A stretch of DNA of 63,979 nucleotides, filler included, from Aduncisulcus paluster (taxonomy: Eukaryota), in assembly GCA_024181965.1 (NCBI GenBank). It is 11 parts of 11 records of this genome, joined end to end, with 100 filler letters (N's around TTAATTAATTAA, not from the genome) between each part and the next. Parts side by side here need not be neighbours in the genome. Positions count along the whole stretch, not along the records: positions 38,216 to 46,391 come from BQXS01011420.1; 10 more parts are not named here. One strand, 5' to 3'. Position 1 is the first letter of the stretch. Every line of letters begins with the position of its first letter. The position numbers were made by a program, and so were the translations under genes. Below are positions 3,219 through 61,420 of this stretch, piece by piece. Under the pieces are notes generated by a model. The model was not told the DNA's origin, did no database searches, and saw nothing but the letters and a program-made list of their open reading frames with translations.

Positions 3219-3318
3219 NNNNNNNNNNNNNNNNNNNNNNNNNNNNNNNNNNNNNNNNNNNNTTAATTAATTAANNNNNNNNNNNNNNNNNNNNNNNNNN
3301 NNNNNNNNNNNNNNNNNN
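3219..3318. other. Artificial contig linker N44-TTAATTAATTAA-N44 (first of 10)
   Basis: Identical linker with stops in all six frames also at 6459-6558, 9503-9602, 20252-20351, 24596-24695, 34427-34526, 38116-38215, 46392-46491, 51981-52080, 61319-61418. Confidence 0.98.
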
Positions 3319-5659: not shown

Positions 5660-6558
5660 ATGGATCAACGATTGAGTTAGATTATTAAGAATGTATGTCT
5701 TGCCCACCCACCCACCCTACATACATACATAACATCACAATACTCTATGATACATTCTATACAATGAAGCACTAAACCAAACTAGCTCTCTCTTTCTATC
5801 TCAGATATCAGAAAAATATCAAAAGAAGGATGAATACCAAGACAGACTCGAGAGAAAGTTTACTACTGGAAAAACATAACCCAAATTATCCAATCCAGAT
5901 TAAACCGATCAATTGACCAACCGATGGAAAAGTTCTTTAGGTTCTTGAAGCAAGATGAGATTCTATTTTGAAGTGTTGAAGTCAGCACAAACAGTAATAT
6001 TCTAACTTGAAGAAAGATAACCGTGAACAAAAGAGTTCTAGATCATGAATTGATACAGTTGATCACAAACCATACCAGATCATATTGAAATGACCTTCAC
6101 AAACATACTTAATGAGAATGAAGAATAAGATCAGAAGAAAGAAACACACATATGCAAAAGACACTTTTCTCAACCATGTCAGTGTCAAAACTATTCCAAG
6201 AACATCACTTATAGACAGATACTCAATCCACATCCACTCATAAGATAAGGATATCACGGATGAGCTTCTATACTGACTGATCAGACAGTTGGAACACTCA
6301 AGATAGATGTATCCTTCTCTCAAGCGAGGAGAAGTATGGACATTGGGTGTGATGTCGGTCATGAGTATAGTACTACTGGAGTCACGGTTGGGAGAGGATG
6401 TGGTAGCAAGGCAGCCAGACAACTATAGGGTCCTGAAGAAGATATTCTATACCAGATCNNNNNNNNNNNNNNNNNNNNNNNNNNNNNNNNNNNNNNNNNN
6501 NNTTAATTAATTAANNNNNNNNNNNNNNNNNNNNNNNNNNNNNNNNNNNNNNNNNNNN

Positions 6559-9502: not shown

Positions 9503-9603
9503 NNNNNNNNNNNNNNNNNNNNNNNNNNNNNNNNNNNNNNNNNNNNTTAATTAATTAANNNNNNNNNNNNNNNNNNNNNNNNNNNNNNNNNNNNNNNNNN
9601 NNA

Positions 9604-20251: not shown

Positions 20252-20353
20252 NNNNNNNNNNNNNNNNNNNNNNNNNNNNNNNNNNNNNNNNNNNNTTAAT
20301 TAATTAANNNNNNNNNNNNNNNNNNNNNNNNNNNNNNNNNNNNNNNNNNNNCC

Positions 20354-24595: not shown

Positions 24596-24695
24596 NNNNN
24601 NNNNNNNNNNNNNNNNNNNNNNNNNNNNNNNNNNNNNNNTTAATTAATTAANNNNNNNNNNNNNNNNNNNNNNNNNNNNNNNNNNNNNNNNNNNN

Positions 24696-34426: not shown

Positions 34427-34526
34427 NNNNNNNNNNNNNNNNNNNNNNNNNNNNNNNNNNNNNNNNNNNNTTAATTAATTAANNNNNNNNNNNNNNNNNN
34501 NNNNNNNNNNNNNNNNNNNNNNNNNN

Positions 34527-36493: not shown

Positions 36494-37053
36494 GATATAG
36501 TTCTATTTCACGTGTTAAGAACATTTATGAACGATTTCAATGCTATTCAATAACATGGATATATCTCCATTTCATTTCTATCCTTATCCTTGCCTTTCTG
36601 TAACAGAAATTCTGTTCATTTTCACTTGCTTTTGCTTACAATCAATAATATCAAGAACTCGGAATATGATGGTATACATATGTCTGTATACTGCTACGAA
36701 TCTAATCCCCTGATGCTTCATGGAACATGACATTTCATTCCACCAAATTCCAATTCCAACTCCNNNNNNNNNNNNNNNNNNNNGATATAGTTCTATTTCA
36801 CGTGTTAAGAACATTTATGAACGATTTCAATGCTATTCAATAACATGGATATATCTCCATTTCATTTCTATCCTTATCCTTGCCTTTCTGTAACAGAAAT
36901 TCTGTTCATTTTCACTTGCTTTTGCTTACAATCAATAATATCAAGAACTCGGAATATGATGGTATACATATGTCTGTATACTGCTACGAATCTAATCCCC
37001 TGATGCTTCATGGAACATGACATTTCATTCCACCAAATTCCAATTCCAACTCC
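36494..37053. repeat. 270-bp direct duplication flanking a 20-N gap (likely unmerged scaffold overlap)
   Basis: 36494-36763 equals 36784-37053; a (CCAACT)n microsatellite at the end of the copies probably broke the assembly. Confidence 0.85.
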
Positions 37054-38114: not shown

Positions 38115-38215
38115 CNNNNNNNNNNNNNNNNNNNNNNNNNNNNNNNNNNNNNNNNNNNNTTAATTAATTAANNNNNNNNNNNNNNNNNNNNNNNNNNNNN
38201 NNNNNNNNNNNNNNN

Positions 38216-38460
38216 AATGTGTGATTTGCATAACCACCACCAACATTCCTAACTTTCTGTCGTAAGCCAACAGGCAGAAGTTCAAGATGTGAGATAACAT
38301 ATTCAATAGGTTTTCCATCAAGAACAGTACCAGCAAGGGCTGCTTGGGATTTGGTGCAGTATCCTTTATGATGAAGTCTATGAACTTCAATAACCTTCTT
38401 GGGATAATGAGGTTCAAGGGCATCAATGGACCATGGGTAATCTTCGAGAGTATATGGCAT
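38216..38460 (-). CDS. sod: Fe/Mn superoxide dismutase, N-terminal fragment
   Basis: MPYTL..YPW..DALEPH...VH..HHKGY and RNVGGGYANH cover the first two metal-ligand His regions. Confidence 0.92.
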
Positions 38461-38848
38461 TGCTTTGTGATGGAGTTACTTTTCCTATAGGGTGGAAATA
38501 GAAGATAAATATGGGCAAATAAATGAATATCGCGAGAAAATAATAAACGTCACAATAAACATCATGTATGTCACATTGATACTATACAGTTCTCAAGGAT
38601 TAAGTAATGAAAAGATTTGTCAGATTCATATTGATTGCTATCATCGTCTATTCAACATAACAATGGAAAATCAATTCGTAATAAATCATTGCTAAGCAAT
38701 ATTATTTGATATAAAAGGTGCAAAATGTAGAAACGCAAGGAAATAGAAAATCTTGAAACATCAAGAGAATTAGTGGATATAATAGGCCATGGGTGAAAGA
38801 AAATGGATATAAATAAGCGCTCCAGACAATAAAATCAAAATAAAAAAG

Positions 38849-39167
38849 GCTGTGGTATCGCGTGTGTAGGAGGTTACGAAGGATGTGTTTATTTATAGGA
38901 CGTAACAGGTTCTCGCTAAATTTTTAAACACTAGGATTTTACGATAAATTGTTTCAGTAAAATTGGGTTTAATTTGCGAGATTTTTGGGTGTTTTTTGGC
39001 TGAAAGAACTAAAAGCTTAGGTGACTACCCTTGCTCTTTGGTTCTTTCTTTTGGATTAAATTCCAGCACGAAGTCTTTGAGCTTGGGAACCTTCATACGA
39101 AGCTCTTCCTTTTACTCTTATAATAAATTGTACCACACAACTACTTACAAACACGCGATACCACAGC
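38849..39167. mobile_element. About 320-bp non-coding element with 17-bp perfect inverted ends (MITE-like, or a structured RNA)
   Basis: gctgtggtatcgcgtgt (38849-38865) and acacgcgataccacagc (39151-39167). It contains the repeat shared with 26311-26384. No clear target-site duplication. Confidence 0.5.
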
Positions 39168-39214
39168 GTGCCTCCTATAAGGTTCAACCTGTACAGCTGT
39201 GATCAAAAATAAAT

Positions 39215-39287
39215 TGGCCCCAGCGTGGCTTGAACACGCGACCTCAGCATCTTCAGTGCTGCGCTCTCCCAGCTGAGCTATGTGGCC
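39215..39287 (-). tRNA. tRNA-Phe (GAA)
   Basis: GGCCACA TAGCTCAGCTGGGAGAGCG CAGCA-CTGAAGA-TGCTG AGGTC GCGTG-TTCAAGC-CACGC TGGGGCC A; 73 nt, no encoded CCA, followed by a T-run terminator. Confidence 0.96.
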
Positions 39288-39549
39288 AATATAAAAAATG
39301 GAATATATCTCATAAATAAATTATACTTTTTGGTTTCCTAAATTTTCAATATTCAGATTGTTGAAAAACCCAAGAAAGGTCATTTAAATATGAAATGAAA
39401 GAATTTTCAATTAAAAACATGTTTTTACTTGGCAAGAAATTATATTATGTTTGATCAGCTCAAGTGGAAAAATATAAAAGATATATTTTGGCACAAAACT
39501 CAATAATTCCCATTTTGTATATTATTATTGACCAATTAGAATTCCATTA

Positions 39550-40329
39550 TTACAAATCCGCAGAATTGTTGCTATCGAGCCACTCCCTTGAGATCTGACA
39601 ATAAAATTGGTAAGGTTGTGGAATATAAAATTCTGAGCATTGTTGATGCAGCAATTCACGAAGAAAGTCCAAATCGTCAAACACATCGTTTGTTTCAGAG
39701 AGAGGAATGAGTTTCCTATCTCGATCAACTTGAAGGATACTTAGGCCCAAATGACCAAATGGATCCCCAATGGAAAAAGTATCTGTATCATATATACCAA
39801 ACATACAAGATGAGCGGAAGGGTTTGATAGTCTCAATGAGTTTTTCTTCATCAAATTCTTCTGGGAAGAAGAAGAAGCTGGAAACATGTGAGAGGTGAGA
39901 AGTAAATCTAGTTAGATTACTTGCAGTGATGAATGGAATGGTTTCACGGTTGAAAAGAACCTCATCGATCCAATATTTGATTCCATTGAAGTTACTCCCA
40001 TAAAAGAGATTAATTTCCTGAGAAAAGTTTCCATAGGTTATTCCAACAATAGGGGAATATGGTGGAAGATCAATACACCCATGATACTCATCACAATTGA
40101 TAATTTCAAATTTGATTGTATCTTGGAACTCTTCAATAAGAGAAGGCAAGATTTTCCGGTCAAAATTCTTTTCAGCGAAACACCTATCAGTTTCAGATGA
40201 AAAAAAAACAAAAAAATGGGGTTGATTAGTTTCGATGAATTTGGCATCGATTGATATGGAAAATGTAGTCAACACCAAATTAAATATAAAAATGATAAAT
40301 AATGAACAAATAAAACTCCGATTAAGCAT
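39550..40329 (-). CDS. Secreted/ER protein, possibly redox-inactive thioredoxin/PDI-like fold
   Basis: Signal peptide after MLNRSF; the pattern FFVFFSS...IKFEIINCD...YSPIV...FYG resembles a thioredoxin fold without CxxC. Confidence 0.55.
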   Translation of the reverse strand: MLNRSFICSLFIIFIFNLVLTTFSISIDAKFIETNQPHFFVFFSSETDRCFAEKNFDRKILPSLIEEFQDTIKFEIINCDEYHGCIDLPPYSPIVGITYGNFSQEINLFYGSNFNGIKYWIDEVLFNRETIPFITASNLTRFTSHLSHVSSFFFFPEEFDEEKLIETIKPFRSSCMFGIYDTDTFSIGDPFGHLGLSILQVDRDRKLIPLSETNDVFDDLDFLRELLHQQCSEFYIPQPYQFYCQISREWLDSNNSADL

Positions 40330-40570
40330 TTTAAAAACTACAAATCGAAGGAAATTGAATTTTAATTTCAACTTGAAGTTCAACTAGGGTGTTGCTGACC
40401 TTCCACCGAAAAATTAACAGTTTTTATTTCCTTTGATTTTTTTTATTTTGTTCAATCCCTATTAATACTCTGTAAAAAATCACTCTGTCCAAAACCTAGA
40501 ATTGCCTGATCAAAAATATCAAAGAATAACTCAAATCCTGTTATAATCTTGACAATCTAGAAAGTATCAA

Positions 40571-41944
40571 CTATTCTTTTTGTTTCTTTAAATAGAGATG
40601 CTCCACGGCCTTCATAAATTGTTGTCTTCTTTCCTTATTAAATATCCATCTTAAACAACGATTTGAGTGGATATTTTCTGTTATTTTTTGCTTAATAATA
40701 TCTCTTGCATCAGTATCCCGATATCTAATGGTTCTTTCAATATCAATGACCTTCAGATGAGACAAATGATCGACTTCATCGGCAATGGGAATATCTTGAT
40801 AATGCAAAAAGAACGATTGGACATGTTTCAAAATTGATTGAAGATCTTTGAATGCATTTTTCTTTCCATCTTCCTCATATTGTCCATACGATCCATCACT
40901 CTCGCTCATAACAAACCCAACTACACAATATAACCACTCAAACCGCGTCAATCGTTCCATCTGATCACATATATGTACGGTCACACTGATATCTGATGCC
41001 AATTTCACAGAGAACTTGAGATCATTGATGGAGGGACGCGTCGGACGAGGAGATTCATAAACTCCATCAATAAATAATCTTTTGAAGTTACTACTCGTAA
41101 TTATGGTCCTTGGAGGACTTTCAGTAAAGGATGGGACAACAATAATCACATGAGGTACAGACTTTTGGTAACTCTTCTTAACATAATATTTCGGCTCGAT
41201 AAAACCAAAATCTATGGGGAAACCGGGCTTATATCCTGGAATAGCACGCTCGAGCTTCTTCTCTGCATGCATTTTTGTCGCAGATTCCCCAGAAATCGAA
41301 GCATGTCTTTTGCTTGATTGTTGAGCATGCTTGGCCTGGGCAGTCATTGATTCAATTCCCATAAGCTGTGGTTTTGATTCTTCTTCCGGCAAATACATTC
41401 CTGTTGTAGGATGCGCAGGAAGGGAATCAAAAGAATAGGCTTGGACAGCACTCAAATAGTCAGAATCGTCTGACACTTGATCCAATTTTTTTTTTGCTGC
41501 GAAAAAAGCCGAAATAATTTCATACCCAGCCAAAGATGGCCCAACCTCATCTTCAACGGCCTCTCCAGCCGTTACATCAATTGTATCAATAAATTTGAAA
41601 GTATAATCGGGCAAAACATCAGTTTCGCCAGTGAAAAAATCAGTTAGGGTCTTACCATCCTGAGCAGGAATTGCTTTCCGTTTCCATCCAGCAGAACGAA
41701 AGAACTTACGATATCCACCAGCTTTAAATTTCCTCTCAGAAACTGGTAGACTTCCAAGAAATTTAACAATTGTGTATACGTCAAAAACCGTCTTTTCTCC
41801 TGATTTTGGGTTAAAACCAGTGACCGAAGAAGCGAAGAAACGCAATCCATCGATAGAAACATAATCACCATCTTCATCAAATGTAATAGAATCTATTGAA
41901 TTGTTTGTAAAACATTTTTGGAACAATTCAATGACATCTCCCAT
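40571..41944 (-). CDS. CDC73: Cdc73/parafibromin (Paf1 complex), divergent
   Basis: C-terminal domain pattern IIVVPS...IITSSNFKRLFIDGVY, D...L...EW..VVGFV, FFLHY, IERTIRYRD; the N-terminus (D...L.....GD.V...G..F....T.F) also fits. Confidence 0.75.
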   Translation of the reverse strand: MGDVIELFQKCFTNNSIDSITFDEDGDYVSIDGLRFFASSVTGFNPKSGEKTVFDVYTIVKFLGSLPVSERKFKAGGYRKFFRSAGWKRKAIPAQDGKTLTDFFTGETDVLPDYTFKFIDTIDVTAGEAVEDEVGPSLAGYEIISAFFAAKKKLDQVSDDSDYLSAVQAYSFDSLPAHPTTGMYLPEEESKPQLMGIESMTAQAKHAQQSSKRHASISGESATKMHAEKKLERAIPGYKPGFPIDFGFIEPKYYVKKSYQKSVPHVIIVVPSFTESPPRTIITSSNFKRLFIDGVYESPRPTRPSINDLKFSVKLASDISVTVHICDQMERLTRFEWLYCVVGFVMSESDGSYGQYEEDGKKNAFKDLQSILKHVQSFFLHYQDIPIADEVDHLSHLKVIDIERTIRYRDTDARDIIKQKITENIHSNRCLRWIFNKERRQQFMKAVEHLYLKKQKE

Positions 41945-42231
41945 GATAGTGATCAAAATAGGATTGTGAAAGTTCTCGTTAGAAATTCCTATTGATTCAT
42001 CATTTTTGAAGCATATTATATGTTAGGATAAAAATATTTTTTTGATGACCGATTATCTATATTAGATATCTTGATAAATAGAACCTGTAGGAAAAATTTC
42101 TACAAAACTCTTTTTCTAAAGCAAAATATGTCATAGAATGAAATTAAATATTATAATTGGAGAGAACCAAGTATTTGACTATCATTTCAGGCCAGTTACT
42201 TGTATTTCATATTTTAGATTGTTTTGACGGA

Positions 42232-43346
42232 ATGGATAACGTTTGGAACATGCCACCAACATCTCTTGATGAACAAATAGCTAGACTTGAGCGTTGTGAA
42301 CTTTTAGAAGATGTTGAAGTCAAGAATTTATGTCAAAAGGCCCGTGAAATATTGTTAAAGGAAAATAATATGGTTATTGTTGATGGAGCTGTAACTGTAA
42401 GTTTATTTTTTCATATTTACTTTGTCTATATAATATTTATTTTATTTGTGTCGAAATTTTATTGAATTTTCATCTATATTACGATGTATGAACATATCCA
42501 TTGTTCCAACTGATTTCAATCCTTGATAATATCAATCTCTGTCTTATTTGATAAATACTTTAGGTATGTGGAGATATCCATGGACAATTCTATGATTTGA
42601 AAGAGTTATTCAGGGTGGGAGGACGTTGTCCTGACACAAATTATATATTTTTAGGCGATTATGTTGATCGCGGATCATATAGCGTTGAGACATTCCTCTG
42701 GTTGCTTGCTTTAATGGTAAGATATCCGCATAGGATGACTCTAATTCGTGGAAATCATGAGTCTCGACAAATAACTCAAGTTTACGGCTTTTACGACGAA
42801 TGCGTTCGTAAATATGGAACTGTTAAAGTATGGCGCTATTGTACTCAAGTATTTGACCATTTAACTCTTGCTGCATTGATATCTAATTCCGTCTTCTGCG
42901 TTCATGGTGGTTTATCTCCTTCAATTTCTACTCTTGATGAAATCAAATCTATAAATAGAATAACCGATAATTTGCACGATGGAGCTATGTGTGATCTTAT
43001 GTGGAGTGATCCAGAAGAGGTTGATGGTTTTGTAGTGTCTTCGAGAGGGGCCGGATACCTCTTTGGAGAAAGAATAGTTAAGAATTTCTGTGATTCCAAC
43101 AAACTCAGCCTTATTGCAAGGGCTCATCAACTTGTTATGGAAGGATATAAATTTGTATTTGATGAGAAACTTGTAACTGTCTGGAGTTGTGGAAATTATT
43201 GTTATCGATGTGGGAATAGTGCTGCAATAATGGAATGTTTTGGATCTGGAACAATTGAAAAGTTTTTTAAAGTTTTTCAAGCTGCACCAGAATCTGCTCG
43301 TGGACCTCCTGCTAGGAAAATTATTCCAGATTTTTATCTGATATAA
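42232..43346 (+). CDS. PPP4C: PP2A-like Ser/Thr phosphatase catalytic subunit, PP4 type; join(42232..42396,42564..43346)
   Basis: [42 protein letters not shown] and [24 protein letters not shown] and ELFRVGG favour PP4. The start could instead be the ATG at 42250. Confidence 0.9.
42397..42563 (+). other. Spliceosomal intron (167 nt) in the PP4 gene
   Basis: GTAAGT...TTTAG; splicing gives the conserved AVT|VCGDIHG. Confidence 0.93.
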
Positions 43347-43449
43347 ACGTTTATTATCACTAAATACATGAATTTAACAATTATTATGCCCAAACAAAAA
43401 TAAACTCCACCAATTTCAAAGAATATATTCATTTTGCGTTTTTGTTACA

Positions 43450-44661
43450 ATGGAGAAGGTTAAGAAGATTATTGAAACTCTCAAAACTCGTAAAATTGAT
43501 CTTTACGACAAAGATTGGCTCCGTACCTGGGATTTAACTCAAGACGAGATCCATGCTACTCTTGAGATAGCTGAGGCTCTTAAGATCCTCTACAAGGAGA
43601 ACATTGACTGTTCCTGTTTCTCCGGTGCTCTTGCTGTGTCTCAATTCCGTGACAACTCCACTCGTACCCGTTTCTCTTTTGCGAAGGCCGCTACTCTCCT
43701 TGGTCTCACTGTGTCCGATCTTGATGAGAAAAAATCTCAGATTGCCCACGGAGAAACCGTCCGTGAAACCTCCAACATGATCTCCTTCCTTACTGAGGTC
43801 ATTGGTATCCGTGACGATAAATTTGTTGGTAAAGGTCACACCTACCAGGTTGAAGTTGCCAAGTCCGTTGACGCTGGATTCAAAGAAGGAGTTCTCCCCC
43901 AACGTCCCTCTATCGTTAACCTTCAATGTGACGAGGACCATCCTACTCAATCTATGAGTGATCTTGCTCACCTCGTCGACCATTTCGGTGGCGTTGAGAA
44001 TCTTAAGGGAAAGAAGATCTGCATGTCATGGGGTTACAGTCCTTCATACGGTAAGCCTCTTTCTGTTCCTCAAGGAATCATCGCCTTGTTACCCAGATTC
44101 GGAGCTGATGTTCACCTCTGTTACCCTGAGGGTTACGACCTCCTTCCCCACGTTATGGAAGAGGCCAAGAAGCAGGCTGAGATTGGCGGTGGAAAGCTCT
44201 CTGTCCACTCTTCTATGGAGCCTGGACTCAAGGATGCTGATGTCGCTTACGTCAAGTCCTGGGCCCCTGCCTCTGTCATGATCGAGAAGGCTGCCCTCAT
44301 CGATGCTGGATTTGCTGATGGTACCCCTCAGATGGATGAGCTCGAAAAGAAAGCTCTTGCTGAGAATGCCAAGCATATGGATTGGGAATATACTGAAGAA
44401 CTTGCCAAGCTCACTAAGCCTGGTGCTGACACTCCTGACTGTCTCGCCATGCACTGTCTCCCTGCTGATATCACCGGTGTTTCTTGCAAGCATGGTGAAT
44501 TCGCTGCTTCTGTCTTTGACCGCCATCGTGTTGCCATGTACAAGGAAGCTCAGTGGAAACCTTACATCATTGCTTCTATGATGATGATCACTAGGTTCAA
44601 GGACTCTGCTCGTATCCTCGATAAGATTGTTGAGAGAAAGAAGCCCCGTAAGATGGAGTAA
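43450..44661 (+). CDS. ygeW: Knotted carbamoyltransferase YgeW family (bacterial type)
   Basis: FRDNSTRTRFS, DLDEKKSQIAHGETVRET.NMISF, IGIRDD, VNLQCDEDHPTQ, YSPSYGKPLSVPQGII, KSWAP, MHCLPADITGVSC..GE and YKEA.WKPYIIA are YgeW-type motifs rather than OTC/ATC motifs. Confidence 0.92.
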   Translation: MEKVKKIIETLKTRKIDLYDKDWLRTWDLTQDEIHATLEIAEALKILYKENIDCSCFSGALAVSQFRDNSTRTRFSFAKAATLLGLTVSDLDEKKSQIAHGETVRETSNMISFLTEVIGIRDDKFVGKGHTYQVEVAKSVDAGFKEGVLPQRPSIVNLQCDEDHPTQSMSDLAHLVDHFGGVENLKGKKICMSWGYSPSYGKPLSVPQGIIALLPRFGADVHLCYPEGYDLLPHVMEEAKKQAEIGGGKLSVHSSMEPGLKDADVAYVKSWAPASVMIEKAALIDAGFADGTPQMDELEKKALAENAKHMDWEYTEELAKLTKPGADTPDCLAMHCLPADITGVSCKHGEFAASVFDRHRVAMYKEAQWKPYIIASMMMITRFKDSARILDKIVERKKPRKME

Positions 44662-44842
44662 ATATCATTTTTTGTAAGATAGATGGGTTTGTCCTAAGGT
44701 AATATTCTGCATCTAATCATCACTATTAATTCAAATACATGATATAAAAGAAAATAATTAAGCTCTTTTCAACAAGAAATAATTCAAATGACTTTTGAAC
44801 CCAAATTAAAGAACAAAGTGACAAAGAAACGAAATTATATTA

Positions 44843-46391
44843 ATGGCAATATATGATTTAACTCAATTTATTGATAATTTGGCAGAACAAGATAGTTTTG
44901 ACATCAATATAAAAAAAACTAACAAGACTATCGAAAAAATACTGAAACAGATCTTATACACTCCTCCATCAACAGAATTATCACATAAATTAATCAAACA
45001 TATCGAAAGATATTGCAGGATCTTGCAAAAACTACCATCATTCAAGGGATTTGACTTCGATTTCGTGTCTAGACTCCCTTCAACGTTTTCAATATTTTCT
45101 AAACCATCTCATAAAAAATTTTTATGGAACAAAATAGAAATTCAGCGTGCAATCAGTGAAATATTCTTAATTTGTATTGATAACATATCTACAGGATCCT
45201 TTTCTCCCCAACAACACCTTGATATTGTAACAATTGATGATATTGAACATAATTTGATTGATATTGAAGATATATCTGATCAAACTCCTCCCAAACCGAT
45301 CAAACAACCTCCAATCCCTACACCTTCTCCTGTTATCATTTCATCCCGAAAATCTAATCCCCACACTAAAATTACAAAATCTACATCTATTTCTCCAACA
45401 AAATATAAATCAATTACTGAATTATCCCCGCCACCTCACTCTAAAGGAAAAGACTGTCGAACACCCTCTCCACGGACACCCTCTTCGATAAAACAAAAAT
45501 GTTTGGGTAATTCTAGTTCTTCTGTACATAAAAAATCTGATGTTGAACATAAATGTAAAAAAGAACATCTCCGTAGTTCTCAAGAACATAAACTTCCAAC
45601 CTCTAAATCTCAACACAGTTTAATATCGACCCCCCAATCCAAATCAAAATCTCAATCGACGACTTCTAACTCCTTTCGAGGACATTCTTCTTCTTTTCCA
45701 TTGCTTCCAATGCACGATGTGATGTTCTCGCCCTCTCCCTCTCTCCGTTCTCCTCGTCTGCAATCTTCTCGACTTCATTCGCATCCTCGTATTTCACCAT
45801 CGTCTCATGTTGCAACTGTTTCTCCAATGATTTCTGCGTTTTTCACTGATGAAACCCTTGACGACACGTACACTTTGCTCTCCTCGAATTCATACTATAA
45901 TACTACCTTGCATCTGCAAGGAGATGAATCGATGTATTCAGCACATGATTGTTCTAGAGTACACATTATTCGCTTACCAAGTCCTCTGCCTTTCAAGCAT
46001 ATGTGTTTTTCCTCATCGCTGGTTCAAAATGTTGATTCATGTGCTCCACTGTCAAGCATAGCCTCTCTGCTTAGAAAAGGCAGTATCGTGACAATTGACG
46101 GAAGTAATGTCCATTCCATGGTCATGGAAGATCCCAAACGAGTGATGATGTTCACTATTAATGAAGCAACCGGCTCAAAGGGGAGAGATGGAACAGATGT
46201 TGTGGGTCGATTTGGCATGAAACGTGTCCGAGATGAAGACTTATCACCTTCTTCACATCTTTCTTTGCCACCTGCATCTTCCCCGTCTACTTTTTTCAGA
46301 GCATCCACCATGTGTTCATGTGCTCGAGGCGTATGTGTGTGTGATTGTCGAGGTGTTCGACTCATATCTGTGAACGAAAGAGGAATGTCTT
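44843..46391 (+). CDS. Hypothetical Ser/Pro-rich protein, 3'-partial
   Basis: Open frame of more than 500 aa running to the contig end. Confidence 0.75.
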
Positions 46392-46491
46392 NNNNNNNNN
46401 NNNNNNNNNNNNNNNNNNNNNNNNNNNNNNNNNNNTTAATTAATTAANNNNNNNNNNNNNNNNNNNNNNNNNNNNNNNNNNNNNNNNNNNN

Positions 46492-47420
46492 GAAAGAACA
46501 CCAGGTCCACCAGCGTTGGTAACGATGGACATGTGCTTACCCTTGGGAAGGGGTTGAGTGGCGATGGTTTGACCAAGAGCGAAGAGATCCTGAATGTCAG
46601 TCACACGGAGAACACCAGCACGTTCAAGAACGGCGTCAAGAACGTCATCAGCACCGGTAAGGGAACCAGTGTGGGAGGCAGCAGCAGCAGAACCAGCATC
46701 AGTACGACCAGCCTTGATGAGGACAATGGGCTTCTTGGGGGCAACCTCACGGGCAGCATTGAAGAAAGAGGCAGCGTCACCGATACCTTCAACGTAACAG
46801 ATGATGGCATTAGTATCCTTATCATCACCAAAGTAACGGATCAAGTCTCCCCAGTCAACGTCAAGCATGGAACCAACAGAAACAAAGGCACTGAAACCAA
46901 GACCAGTGAGTTCAGACCAGTCAAGCATAGCAGTGCACATAGCTCCAGATTGAGATAAGAAACACATGTGTCCCTTGTTTCCCATACAGGCGGCAAAAGT
47001 AGCATTGAGACCAAAGTTAGGGGTCATGACACCAAGAACATTGGGTCCAACAAGACGAGTTCCAGACTTTTTGATATGCTTGAGGATTTCATCTTCAAGA
47101 GCGATACCGGGGGGACCCATTTCCTTGAAACCAGCGGAGATGATGACAAGACCCTTGACACCGAGATCACAGCATTCCTTCACACAAGCAGGAACGAATT
47201 TAGCACGGATGGCAATGATGACAAGATCAGGGATTTTAGGACAATCTCCAACAGTTTTGTAGGCCTTGTGACCAAGAATAGTTTCTCTCTTGAGGGAGAT
47301 GGGATAAATCTCTCCCTTGAAATCGGGGTGGTGCATGTTCTCAACGAGAGTTCTACCAACACCTACTCTTTCACTAGCACCAACAATGGCAACAACATTG
47401 GGTTTAAATATAGCGTCCAT
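46492..47420 (-). CDS. ADP-forming acetyl-CoA synthetase (acetate--CoA ligase), 3'-partial
   Basis: VAIVGAS, IISAGFKE.G, LVGPNVLG, SQSGA, FVSVGS.LDV, AAASHTGSLTG (phospho-His) and TNAGGPGV; in-frame stop just upstream of the ATG. Confidence 0.93.
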
Positions 47421-51741: not shown

Positions 51742-52080
51742 AATAATACCAAGATGAAAACAAAAAGAGACTTTGAGAAACGACTTCAGTCTGTGGGCAA
51801 AGATCGATATTTTCGCCGATAATTCCTCAACAAGTGCATAGAGGGATTTTATAAACAAGAAAATAAACTATAAAACCATCTTTGATAAATTCTATATGTG
51901 AGTTATTCTCCCTAATTCGCTCAAAAACCCAAGACTCAAAACGGGATAAAACGAAAATACCGGGACCGGCAGGTGCAAAANNNNNNNNNNNNNNNNNNNN
52001 NNNNNNNNNNNNNNNNNNNNNNNNTTAATTAATTAANNNNNNNNNNNNNNNNNNNNNNNNNNNNNNNNNNNNNNNNNNNN

Positions 52081-53620: not shown

Positions 53621-55715
53621 ATGTGGGGTAATGAAGGTAGAGAAGGTGATCTTGATGAGTTTATCAAATTAGAACAACAAATTAAAAGAGAAGTCGGTTT
53701 AGATGAAGATACTTTTCAGTATGTATTTGCTTCTGTGTCATTTTTCTCATAAAGAGGTATATTATCCATTTTTACAAGATTTTTTCTCCATATTTATTCC
53801 TGTTTTATAGAGCTATTGATTTAGGGGATACAGTTCCTTTTCAAAATATTATCGATGACGATCAAGCGCAGATGGAAGGTTCTTCGCCTGGCATTTTAGG
53901 TGACACTACAAATGCAGATATTCCACTTCTTGGGGGTGAACCCGTTCCTGATATTGACCTTTCAACAGACTTTTCTCCGAGACGATCACCTCGTATACGA
54001 CCTGTTCCATCCCTCGTCTCTCAATCTGTTCAAACTGATCCACTTCCCGATCAACAAGAGGAAATAGCGCGCCTTCGTCAAGATATAGTCGACTTTAAAA
54101 GCGAAATTCATGAATATAAATTACAAATCCAGGAATGGAAAGAAAAAGACAAAGAAAAAGTGCTTTTGCATCAAAGATTGGTAAAAGATAGAGATTCAGC
54201 CATGTCACAATATCGTCGTGAGCGTCAACGGTCTCAACATCAAAGTGAACTCACTCGCAATGCTACTGATAGCTCAAAAGAACTAAAGACAAAACTTGAA
54301 GAAGCTCAACGGCATCTCAAGAAATTGCGAGGAGAAATACGAACGATTGAGCATACCAGAAAAGTAACCGTCGATGCTCTTCGTGAACAAGTCGATCGTA
54401 AGACGGAAGAATATACGGTTGTTTCTGGGCAACTTGCTCGTCAAGACAAGCTTTTGGAAGAACACAAACGGATAATGGATCGTGAATTGTCAGATAGAGA
54501 TGCAATTATTGAGAACTTACAACGTCAAATTCAGGTACGTGACGAGGCAATTGAGAGAGAGAAACAATCCCGTATCCAACAGAACCACGATGCAGAACTC
54601 CGTCGTATCGATGACTTGCGGAGAGAAGAAGAAGAGAGAAGGCGGCGAGAAGAGGAGAGACGACAGAGGGATCTTGAAATGCAAATGGAAGAAAAAAGAC
54701 TTGAAGCCATTGACAGGAGGAGAAGGGAAGAGGAGAGGAGGAGTGTAGAAGAAAAACGAAGAGAAGAGGAAAGAAGAGAGGAAGAGAGAAGAAGAGAGGA
54801 AGAGAGAAGAAGAGAGGAAGAGAGGAGGAGAGAAGAGGAGAGGAGNNNNNNNNNNNNNNNNNNNNACTCCGTCGTATCGATGACTTGCGGAGAGAAGAAG
54901 AAGAGAGAAGGCGGCGAGAAGAGGAGAGACGACAGAGGGATCTTGAAATGCAAATGGAAGAAAAAAGACTTGAAGCCATTGACAGGAGGAGAAGGGAAGA
55001 GGAGAGGAGGAGTGTTGAAGAAAAACGAAGAGAAGAGGAAAGAAGAGAGGAAGAGAGAAGAAGAGAGGAAGAGAGAAGAAGAGAGGAAGAGAGGAGGAGA
55101 GAAGAGGAGAGGAGGAGAAGAGAAGATGTATTTTCATCCGCTGCCTCTATCAAATCCCAGCCTCATGTTGGGCCGACTGCTTCATTGAGTCGTGCTTCAT
55201 CAACATCCATTCCAGACTCAACATTGGCAGATCTTCCAACAAAGTCGACTGTGGAGACGATTGAACCTTTCCACGACGTTGCTTCATTATTGCGCCAACT
55301 TGAGCTCGATCGAGATGAATACGGAAGTGGACAGATTGTAAAGCATGAAGAAATGAATGAACGTGAAGATGTGAGATTCCAGAAAGGTGGAAGACTGATT
55401 AAATTTCCAAATGGTACTTCTAAGCTTATCCTCCCGACGGGAATATCGAATATCAGATTTAGTAATGGCGATGTTAAGAGAGTTTACCCCGATGGAAGTA
55501 ATGTTTATTTTTATAACCAAGTTGACACTTTAGTAAGTACGTTCCCAAAATTCGGGTATAAGTTGTATAGATTCAGCGATGGCCAATTAGAGAGACATGA
55601 TAATAATGGAAACAAGGCAATTTATTATCCAAACGGCACTTGTAAACATTTGATTGGTTCCGAAGAACTTTGTTTTTTCCCTGACGGATCTGTTCAAAGA
55701 TCGGGAAATAAATAA
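53621..55715 (+). CDS. CENPJ: SAS-4/CPAP/CENPJ centriole protein; exon 1 53621..53718, exon 2 from 53811; apparent split caused by an assembly duplication
   Basis: C-terminal TCP10/G-box repeats (FPNGT, FSNGDVKRVYPDG..VYFY, FSDGQLERH..NG.K.I.YPNG, FPDG), central coiled coil, and a DLDEFIKLEQ motif in exon 1. Confidence 0.88.
53719..53810 (+). other. Spliceosomal intron (92 nt) in SAS-4
   Basis: GTATGT...TTTTATAG, phase 2; joins ATG 53621 in frame with ORF 53872. Confidence 0.82.
54597..55114. repeat. 249-bp duplication flanking a 20-N gap (unmerged overlap in REEER repeats)
   Basis: 54597-54845 matches 54866-55114, with one synonymous difference seen (GTA vs GTT). Confidence 0.85.
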
Positions 55716-61318: not shown

Positions 61319-61420
61319 NNNNNNNNNNNNNNNNNNNNNNNNNNNNNNNNNNNNNNNNNNNNTTAATTAATTAANNNNNNNNNNNNNNNNNNNNNNNNNN
61401 NNNNNNNNNNNNNNNNNNCG

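Follow-up and report, generated by a model that had tools for sequence, protein, structure and literature searches.

The window considered here, a stretch of 63,979 nucleotides (filler included) from Aduncisulcus paluster, a Carpediemonas-like fornicate (Fornicata), contains an open reading frame (ORF) for a YgeW-type knotted carbamoyltransferase at 43450..44661 on the plus strand. This ORF is a genuine nuclear gene of A. paluster and an orthologue of bacterial YgeW, and sequence comparison supports its bacterial ancestry. On balance, we favor the view that the encoded enzyme would carry out ureido phosphorolysis, most probably of purine-derived 2,3-diureidopropionate, and would thereby feed carbamate kinase for ATP formation.

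The ORF starts with ATG, encodes 403 amino acids followed by a stop codon (44659-44661), and is uninterrupted, with no intron, just as an earlier sequence-only reading of this DNA had described it. Its product scored above the cutoff of both NCBIfam equivalog models for YgeW over residues 1-400, with 567.4 bits for NF005538 (cutoff 453) and 555.1 bits for TIGR03316 (cutoff 500), and it has the two Pfam domains OTCace_N and OTCace. Two solved structures matched over the full length, PDB entries 3q98 (483.7 bits) and 2yfk (480.3 bits); since the alignment to the knotted 3q98 is near gap-free over residues 2-398, a trefoil knot in the C-terminal domain is likely. The catalytic motifs are retained, with the carbamoyl-phosphate motifs STRTR and HPTQ (HPxQ) starting at residues 70 and 164 and the HCLP motif at residue 335. 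Furthermore, of the 168 alignment columns with at least 98% conservation among 109 bacterial-side rows, the protein retains 147. The A. paluster protein thus resembles the knotted carbamoyltransferases of the anaerobic urate (2,8-dioxopurine) pathway, E. coli YgeW (3q98) and the 2yfk protein, in its motifs and in a full-length match of about 480 bits. It differs from E. coli YgeW in that its gene is nuclear and stands alone between unrelated eukaryotic genes, with no operon, shows a host-type codon bias, and encodes lysine instead of methionine at residue 124.

Probable ureido phosphorolysis and candidate partner enzymes

For E. coli YgeW, a 2025 preprint shows cleavage of (R)-2,3-diureidopropanoate at a ureido group and, with the carbamate kinase YqeA, formation of ATP (bioRxiv 10.1101/2025.04.24.650524); a second study agrees on phosphorolysis to carbamoyl phosphate (PMC12507026). 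The genomic surroundings of bacterial ygeW were considered in 80 loci around close relatives of the window protein, many of which end at contig ends. Their flanks contained matches to YgeY (52 loci), XdhD-like proteins (40), SsnA (30), YqeB (26), YgfK (25), carbamate kinase (22), HyuA (16) and YgeX (11), and 60 of the 80 had one or more pathway genes within 3 kb of ygeW. A planctomycete locus (L020) combines matches to YgeY, carbamate kinase, SsnA, YgfK and XdhD beside ygeW.

In the mechanism we propose, urate or xanthine would be converted into 2,3-diureidopropionate by xanthine dehydrogenase (XDH)-type, YgfK/dihydropyrimidine dehydrogenase (DPD)-like, SsnA-like and hydantoinase-like enzymes. 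YgeW would then act as it does in E. coli and Clostridium sporogenes, cleaving the ureido group with phosphate to give carbamoyl phosphate, and carbamate kinase, which is already used in the metamonad arginine deiminase pathway, would convert carbamoyl phosphate into ATP. The carbon skeleton would be taken on to pyruvate by a long YgeY-like M20 hydrolase and a pyridoxal phosphate (PLP) enzyme. The cell would thus gain a second way to obtain ATP via carbamoyl phosphate, with prey-derived or stored purines as the source.

Candidates for most of these steps are listed in a published orthogroup table of 19 metamonads (PMC10703272, supplement s007), of which we used the available part; its columns, including that for Aduncisulcus, were identified by cell count, and its annotations are those of others. 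The Aduncisulcus column contains a YgeW-type protein (q2001822, Gene.600), an SsnA-like protein in a mixed group (q2001001, Gene.1699), a YgeY-like protein (q2001380, Gene.959), XDH (q2001227, Gene.2169), a hydantoinase-like dihydropyrimidinase (q2004119, Gene.8718), YqeB (q2004194, Gene.5531), a PLP enzyme (q2001577, Gene.1015), carbamate kinase (q2001460, Gene.923) and a true ornithine transcarbamylase (OTC; q2001360, Gene.1135). In the same table the YgeW-type group also has members in all five Preaxostyla, Trichomonas, Histomonas, both Chilomastix, Dysnectes, Ergobibamus and Trepomonas. Of the ten groups, the DPD/YgfK-like group q2001048 included, Giardia and Spironucleus have entries only for OTC and carbamate kinase. 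This common pattern of loss argues for a joint role of the groups, distinct from the arginine pathway. The idea of ATP from purines, raised in the sequence-only reading, is therefore backed by this table for most partners and for carbamate kinase, and falls short at the DPD/YgfK-like step, for which the Aduncisulcus cell is blank.

Further indications came from fused proteins in a library clustered at 50% identity, all from unnamed environmental contigs. P0123 (963 aa) consists of YgeW and a long M20 hydrolase, and P0132 (773 aa) and P0225 (563 aa) consist of SsnA and YgeW, as judged by best NCBIfam matches that lie below cutoff. A single LG+G4 quick tree placed the YgeW halves of P0123 and P0132 in the metamonad-type set, on long branches. 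The P/S-rich linker of P0123 looks like translated spacer, and all three proteins are either natural fusions or read-through models. With the M20 half of P0123 as query, and subsequently a profile of its eukaryotic matches, we obtained YgeY-like proteins, about 510 aa in length, from Paratrimastix, Trimastix, Blattamonas, Monocercomonoides, Streblomastix and two Skoliomonas. The Trimastix protein (Trimastix_PCT/538) bears the same identifier as in q2001380. These metamonad proteins group together, with 11 rows at a support of 76 inside a 13-row set at 99.

The same M20 type occurs in a SAR324 locus (L081:1202-6743), where ygeW is accompanied by a 514-aa YgeY-like M20 hydrolase, 58% identical to the Paratrimastix protein, and by two PALP-fold enzymes. 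This arrangement mirrors the P0123 fusion, and its order matches the logic of ygeW-ygeX-ygeY in E. coli. No match to SsnA, HyuA or Xdh was found nearby in L081, which may represent a stand-alone 'lower pathway' module. It is one locus out of 80; a SAR324-like donor lineage, which we considered, was rejected since the L081 YgeW is not close to the metamonads in the tree.

Several observations weigh against a purine-fed role for YgeW in A. paluster. Besides the blank DPD/YgfK-like cell, some members of the SsnA-like group q2001001 are annotated as 5'-deoxyadenosine deaminase, and a diaminopropionate ammonia-lyase annotation was not found in the part of the supplement that was searched (PMC10703272); the searched supplement file likewise gave no match to hydantoinase, ygfK, selenate reductase, yqeC, ureidopropionase, allantoinase or guanine deaminase. 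Phosphorolysis of 2,3-diureidopropionate is known for bacterial YgeW (E. coli) only, and the two biochemical papers, as far as their available parts go, conflict on which ureido group is cleaved, with the second assigning the other one (10.1101/2025.04.24.650524, PMC12507026), a dispute that a commentary has recorded (PMC12990295). At about 200 bits (196-208 for P0360, P0354, P0420 and P0422, compared with 714 for E. coli YgeY), the metamonad M20 proteins stay below the YgeY cutoff of 321; YgeY models are nevertheless their only matches at E <=1e-20, and this long type is YgeY-like, not a formal YgeY member. A. paluster, Carpediemonas and Dysnectes did not appear among the 120 YgeY-like matches listed, and the long M20 type adjoins ygeW in one (L081) of the 52 bacterial loci with an M20 match. 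M. exilis has been said to lack 'enzymes for ... catabolism of purines or pyrimidines' (PMC6759080). Finally, a Pfam scan of 20 further ORFs in the window detected no purine-pathway partner genes. YgeW stands apart from the pathway genes, its window neighbors being unrelated eukaryotic genes, so that no clustering was found; such dispersal is usual for transferred genes in eukaryotes.

The main rival reading, which we consider unlikely, is that YgeW is a catabolic ureido phosphorolase that acts on another substrate while still feeding carbamate kinase. Candidates would be 3-ureidopropionate of reductive pyrimidine breakdown, where YgeW would replace beta-ureidopropionase, or a prey-derived ureido compound. 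The pyrimidine variant would agree with the available tables of PMC10703272, which list DPD and dihydropyrimidinase in oxymonads and beta-ureidopropionase in Trimastix and Paratrimastix only. The divergence of the metamonad M20 partner, a long YgeY-like protein, also favors another substrate, and L081, with its long M20 hydrolase and two PALP-fold proteins and no SsnA, HyuA or Xdh match nearby, could be a module for a different substrate. However, the known substrate is favored by similarity to YgeW at the equivalog level, with 147 of 168 invariant columns retained, and by the SsnA-YgeW fusions P0132 and P0225: SsnA is an enzyme of the purine route, and the tree places the YgeW half of P0132 with the metamonad-type sequences. 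Also against another substrate, E. coli YgeW was reportedly inactive on common substrates in a structure paper of 2011. In addition, the YqeB and XDH orthogroups have the same taxon profile in the accessible part of the table.

A role as an extra OTC paralogue in the arginine deiminase pathway is improbable. It is suggested by published names: in the part of PMC10703272 at hand, table s010 files MONOS_603, BLNAU_3580/10628, PAPYR_676, Trimastix Gene.4773 and Streblo_st53870 as OTC (EC 2.1.3.3), and UniRef calls a second A. paluster copy (P0001, see below) ornithine carbamoyltransferase. The window protein, however, falls far below the cutoff of every OTC, ATC, AOTC and PTC model: the OTC equivalogs give at most 107 bits against cutoffs of at least 281, the best of them (TIGR00658) reaching 106.9 bits against 280.85 over residues 21-272 only, whereas the YgeW models pass. 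In a 137-row FastTree with E. coli ArgI and PyrB as outgroup, in which AOTC, SOTC and PTC were compared by hidden Markov model score and not as tree rows, the protein was placed among YgeW sequences, apart from ArgI and PyrB. Scores, structures and tree thus agree that it does not group with OTCases, the result that would have overturned the sequence-only assignment. The true-OTC orthogroup q2001360 moreover has its own Aduncisulcus member in the available table, and Giardia and Spironucleus, which run the arginine pathway and keep OTC and carbamate kinase there, are without the YgeW-type group. The likeness to the catabolic OTC and carbamate kinase of metamonads (PMC5052871, seen in part) lies in the shared superfamily, in the logic of ureido phosphorolysis to carbamoyl phosphate to ATP, and in genes gained from prokaryotes; the difference lies in the family (q2001822 versus q2001360) and in the loss of YgeW from Giardia and Spironucleus, where OTC stays. 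Since YgeW genes of five Preaxostyla were counted as OTC, next to the true OTCs, in rows 86-88 of s010 (PMC10703272), they can inflate calls of a complete arginine deiminase pathway.

It is very improbable that the enzyme operates synthetically, with carbamate kinase providing the carbamoyl phosphate from which a ureido compound would be made. Transcarbamylation is thermodynamically favored over phosphorolysis, and in the available part of PMC12507026 the peak obtained with YgeW and phosphate was weaker than that with the hydrolytic CdUacY, which was put down to the thermodynamics of phosphorolysis. That enzyme, UacY of Clostridioides difficile, performs the same step on the ureido group of diureidopropionate, but it is an amidohydrolase unrelated to YgeW that hydrolyses the bond and conserves no energy (same source). 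Against synthesis stands the bacterial family itself, which occurs in catabolic clusters and yields ATP with carbamate kinase. We know of no biosynthetic need for diureidopropionate.

Distribution and probable descent of YgeW in the metamonads

When the 120 best matches of the window protein were listed, metamonads occupied the top ranks with eight named proteins, from A. paluster, Blattamonas, Skoliomonas sp. GEM-RC, Dysnectes, Monocercomonoides, TZLM1-RC, Skoliomonas sp. TZLM3-RCL and Carpediemonas. Identity to the window protein among these matches was 60-62% for metamonads, followed by bacteria at 58-61%. Barthelona sp. PCE has a divergent YgeW copy and is a further member. In all, orthologues that group together were found in at least nine other named metamonads, some of them on megabase contigs (e.g. 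3.7 Mb and 1.6 Mb). Among the divergent representatives of 50% clusters, P0133 to P0215, no protist names were found, Trichomonas included.

In a site-heterogeneous quick tree of 70 rows, a 14-row set composed of the named metamonads and four unnamed sequences received an SH-aLRT value of 99. A more careful mixture-model tree was built with 40 rows, leaving out Barthelona, which has a very long branch, and the second A. paluster copy. This tree recovered Preaxostyla (100/100), Skoliomonas (100/100), Fornicata (98/87), and Fornicata with Skoliomonas (94/80), and the window YgeW nested with Dysnectes (100/98) and with Carpediemonas (98/87). The inner branching of YgeW follows the accepted species relationships of metamonads. 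The nearest bacteria were two Planctomycetota (L003 and L020), which joined the metamonad group at 97/93. In the FastTree rooted on ArgI and PyrB the metamonads formed a basal grade; this we attribute to a long-branch effect, since it vanished without distant outgroups.

Independent evidence comes from a rare substitution in the protein. At residue 124, in the IRDD motif, methionine is replaced by lysine (IRDD-K) in nine of the ten named metamonad rows, compared with methionine in 181 and lysine in two of 189 non-metamonad rows with the motif; the neighboring Planctomycetota have isoleucine. The two non-metamonad carriers of lysine are L006, a metagenome-assembled genome (MAG) of a gammaproteobacterium in which a carbamate kinase match adjoins ygeW, and P0050.

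We read these data as pointing to one old transfer followed by vertical descent. Because orthologues occur across metamonads and group together, the transfer would be old and the gene inherited since; it would have entered an early metamonad from a bacterium with ygeW in an anaerobic purine-degradation cluster. A single origin is weighed down by the values for the metamonads as a whole, which were 77/30 in the careful tree (all metamonads with the unnamed P0113 and P0123) and 24 in an LG+G4 tree that placed metamonads together after 78 bacterial YgeWs had been added. With such values, two transfers from related donors, instead of one, may have taken place. The lateral acquisition proposed in the sequence-only reading was thus borne out as to bacterial ancestry, but not as an event private to this protist, as orthologues exist in Fornicata, Skoliomonas/Barthelona and Preaxostyla and, going by the published table, in Parabasalia as well. 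A recent transfer private to Aduncisulcus would fit a bacterial family, an intronless ORF and codons unlike those of the neighbors, and is nevertheless highly improbable: metamonads, not bacteria, are closest among the matches listed, the protein nests with Dysnectes and Carpediemonas and shares the IRDD-K signature, and its codon bias is host-like, not bacterial-like.

More tentatively, a metamonad ancestor could have acquired the core of the bacterial anaerobic urate/purine fermentation, still used with carbamate kinase for purine-derived ATP. Such a core might, with a similar degree of caution, have comprised a selenium-linked XDH-type hydroxylase with YqeB, a reductase, SsnA, a hydantoinase, YgeW, the long YgeY-like hydrolase and a PLP lyase. 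Its users, again as a possibility that we hold somewhat doubtful, would be free-living and gut metamonads including Trichomonas and the amitochondriate Monocercomonoides, the pathway having been lost from Giardia and Spironucleus.

Genomic setting, transcripts and neighboring genes

The window is a concatenation of separate contigs. Its joints consist of 44 N, TTAATTAATTAA and 44 N, a six-frame stop spacer, and lie at 3219-3318, 6459-6558, 9503-9602, 20252-20351, 24596-24695, 34427-34526, 38116-38215, 46392-46491, 51981-52080 and 61319-61418. As these joints are TTAATTAATTAA spacers, adjacency across them says nothing about linkage. Two plain runs of 20 N (36764-36783 and 54846-54865) look like ordinary scaffold gaps. 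The YgeW gene lies on a spacer-bounded contig of 8,176 bp (38216..46391) that is gap-free, containing no N, and it is therefore physically linked only to a tRNA-Phe gene, Cdc73, a phosphatase gene and an S/P-rich ORF.

As the sequence-only reading had it, this contig carries both Cdc73 and a tRNA without encoded CCA. The tRNA-Phe(GAA) gene (39214..39288, minus strand) is followed by TTTATTTTT, with a T-run. The gene for a Cdc73/parafibromin-like subunit of the eukaryotic Paf1 complex (40571..41956, minus strand) matches PF05179 Cdc73_C with 39.8 bits (cutoff 32.8). Next comes a catalytic subunit of a PP2A-family Ser/Thr phosphatase (42232..43346, plus strand), with exon 1 at about 42232-42396, its start taken as the first in-frame ATG, and exon 2 at 42564-43346. 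An AT-rich spacer of 103 nt (43347..43449, plus strand) separates the phosphatase stop codon from the YgeW ATG, and presumably holds the promoter and 5' untranslated region (UTR) of YgeW and the phosphatase 3' UTR. The claim that YgeW starts about 100 bp after an intron-containing PP4 gene was accordingly right about distance and intron; the PP4 label was not established, the best solved-structure matches being PP2A catalytic subunits (327 bits). Downstream, an S/P-rich ORF (44843..46391, plus strand) without a family match in the ORF and Pfam scan extends to the contig end.

Parts of the YgeW contig were present in four public runs (X1-X4), whose contigs we mapped onto it; uncovered parts in X3 and X4 were not counted as evidence. 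None of the runs is recorded as RNA, and the RNA content of X2 is shown via a spliced joint only. In this X2 joint, 42396 is linked directly with 42564, and the 167 nt missing between them (42397-42563) have GT..AG ends; X2 therefore contains spliced RNA, and the phosphatase intron is real. The spliced X2 contig continues through the intergenic spacer to 43467. In the DNA-like run X1, a contig of 4,208 nt (39260-43467) covers Cdc73 and the phosphatase and extends across the spacer into YgeW, of which it includes the first 18 nt; the following contig begins at 43438. YgeW contigs are present in X2, X3 and X4; the gene is transcribed, since RNA-derived contigs contain it.

Unitigs break at both ends of the ORF (43438-43467 and 44631-44633), and in X2 the loose end at 43438 leads to a different upstream sequence. 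Such a break, accompanied by a second upstream context, is to be expected of two gene copies, and the A. paluster assembly contains at least two near-identical YgeW copies. The second deposited copy, P0001 (GKT37262.1), lies on a contig of 8,428 bp and differs from the window protein at two amino acids; its model adds an N-terminal extension of 56 aa with a hydrophobic stretch, probably a model artefact. The depth in X1, about twice that of the flanks over the ORF, with six single-base variants listed, also fits two deposited copies. The deposited model of the window copy itself, P0121 (GKT37214.1, 798 aa, 'Putative carbamoyltransferase YgeW, partial'), which was the best database match, is identical to the window ORF over its first 400 residues and then splices the last YgeW codons onto the S/P-rich ORF (44640-46391), from the GTAAG inside 'CGT AAG ATG GAG TAA'. 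No such joint was found among the X1-X4 contigs, which show presence and not absence, and the YgeW orthologues terminate where the window ORF does; given the missing RNA joint, the P0121 fusion is probably a gene-prediction artefact.

Integration in a eukaryotic contig, and not contamination, is what the sequence-only reading had argued, and the X1 and spliced X2 contigs that run from the phosphatase into the ORF start confirm it. The chance that the ORF is a bacterial contaminant or an assembly chimera is negligible, even though protist cultures contain bacteria and the unitigs break at both ORF ends, because the breaks fit the second upstream context of two copies, two deposited contigs carry YgeW, X1 (39260-43467) and spliced X2 contigs lead from eukaryotic genes to the ORF start, the flanks are AT-rich and eukaryotic, and orthologues lie on megabase metamonad contigs.

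The codon usage of the gene was compared with that of other window ORFs, a reference without ribosomal-protein genes. The effective number of codons (Nc) was 37.7 for YgeW and 36.3 for a fragment of an ADP-forming acetyl-CoA synthetase (ACS), versus 46.0-53.2 for 15 other window ORFs. Relative synonymous codon usage (RSCU) of YgeW correlated at 0.89 with that of ACS and at 0.54 with that of the pooled neighbors, and YgeW and ACS share AAG, CTC/CTT, GCC/GCT, GGT, CGT, TCC/TCT and ACC/ACT as preferred codons. The bias noticed by eye, like that of ACS and unlike that of the neighbors, is thus borne out by these figures. As the codons are shared with a core energy-metabolism gene of the host, the bias reads as adaptation to the preferred codons of the host and not as a foreign signature. 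High expression, claimed in the same reading, did not hold up beyond a hint, which comes from this codon bias and from contig depths that are unfit for ranking genes: the summed word depth in X2 was 125,000-305,000 for YgeW versus 430-500 on the phosphatase and Cdc73 contigs, with contig depth being a poor measure of expression.

The ACS-like fragment (46492-47420, minus strand; N-terminal, CoA_binding plus Succ_CoA_lig) is truncated by a contig end and sits on the contig after that of YgeW, without physical linkage to it. Other contigs in the window carry eukaryotic genes for DNA polymerase B, WD40 proteins, anoctamin and a Tcp10/CENPJ-like protein. At the left end of the YgeW contig we observed a repeated element (38216-39307) with an inverted copy beyond the right end; in X1 and X2, contigs connect 38829 with 46391, the two lying on opposite strands, and at 38762-39307 the depth exceeds that of the flanks by a factor of up to about 100.

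Purines as a possible energy source in anaerobic protists

GenBank already names the A. paluster and Carpediemonas proteins YgeW. Metamonad YgeW is therefore known to databases, and as far as our searches reach it has not been interpreted in print. No paper that pairs ygeW with metamonad names occurred among the matches listed, and no claim of a purine-degradation pathway in protists was found in the literature, with the extended taxon data of the preprint lying outside this search. The query for ssnA with Trichomonas returned an unrelated tubulin paper only, and that for uric acid with metamonad unrelated papers only. Purines are unmentioned in the main texts, as far as available, of the Preaxostyla (PMC10703272) and Skoliomonas/Barthelona papers. 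According to a commentary of 2025, the anaerobic urate pathway is restricted to bacteria (PMC12990295).

For substrate-level ATP, anaerobic protists with reduced or absent mitochondria depend on few sources, namely extended glycolysis, ACS and the arginine deiminase pathway. Bacterial prey is rich in purines, and according to a Raman microscopy study some metamonads store purine crystals (bioRxiv 10.1101/2022.01.11.475817). The idea is directly testable, since the bacterial substrates and assays were published in 2025. If it is true, two published statements, that on purine catabolism in M. exilis (PMC6759080) among them, would need revising, and the metamonads would provide the first eukaryotic instance of a pathway that has been called restricted to bacteria, and with it a second substrate-level source of ATP. 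Altogether, a conserved YgeW combined with an existing carbamate kinase points to a further, so far unremarked, purine-fed ATP source in these organisms.

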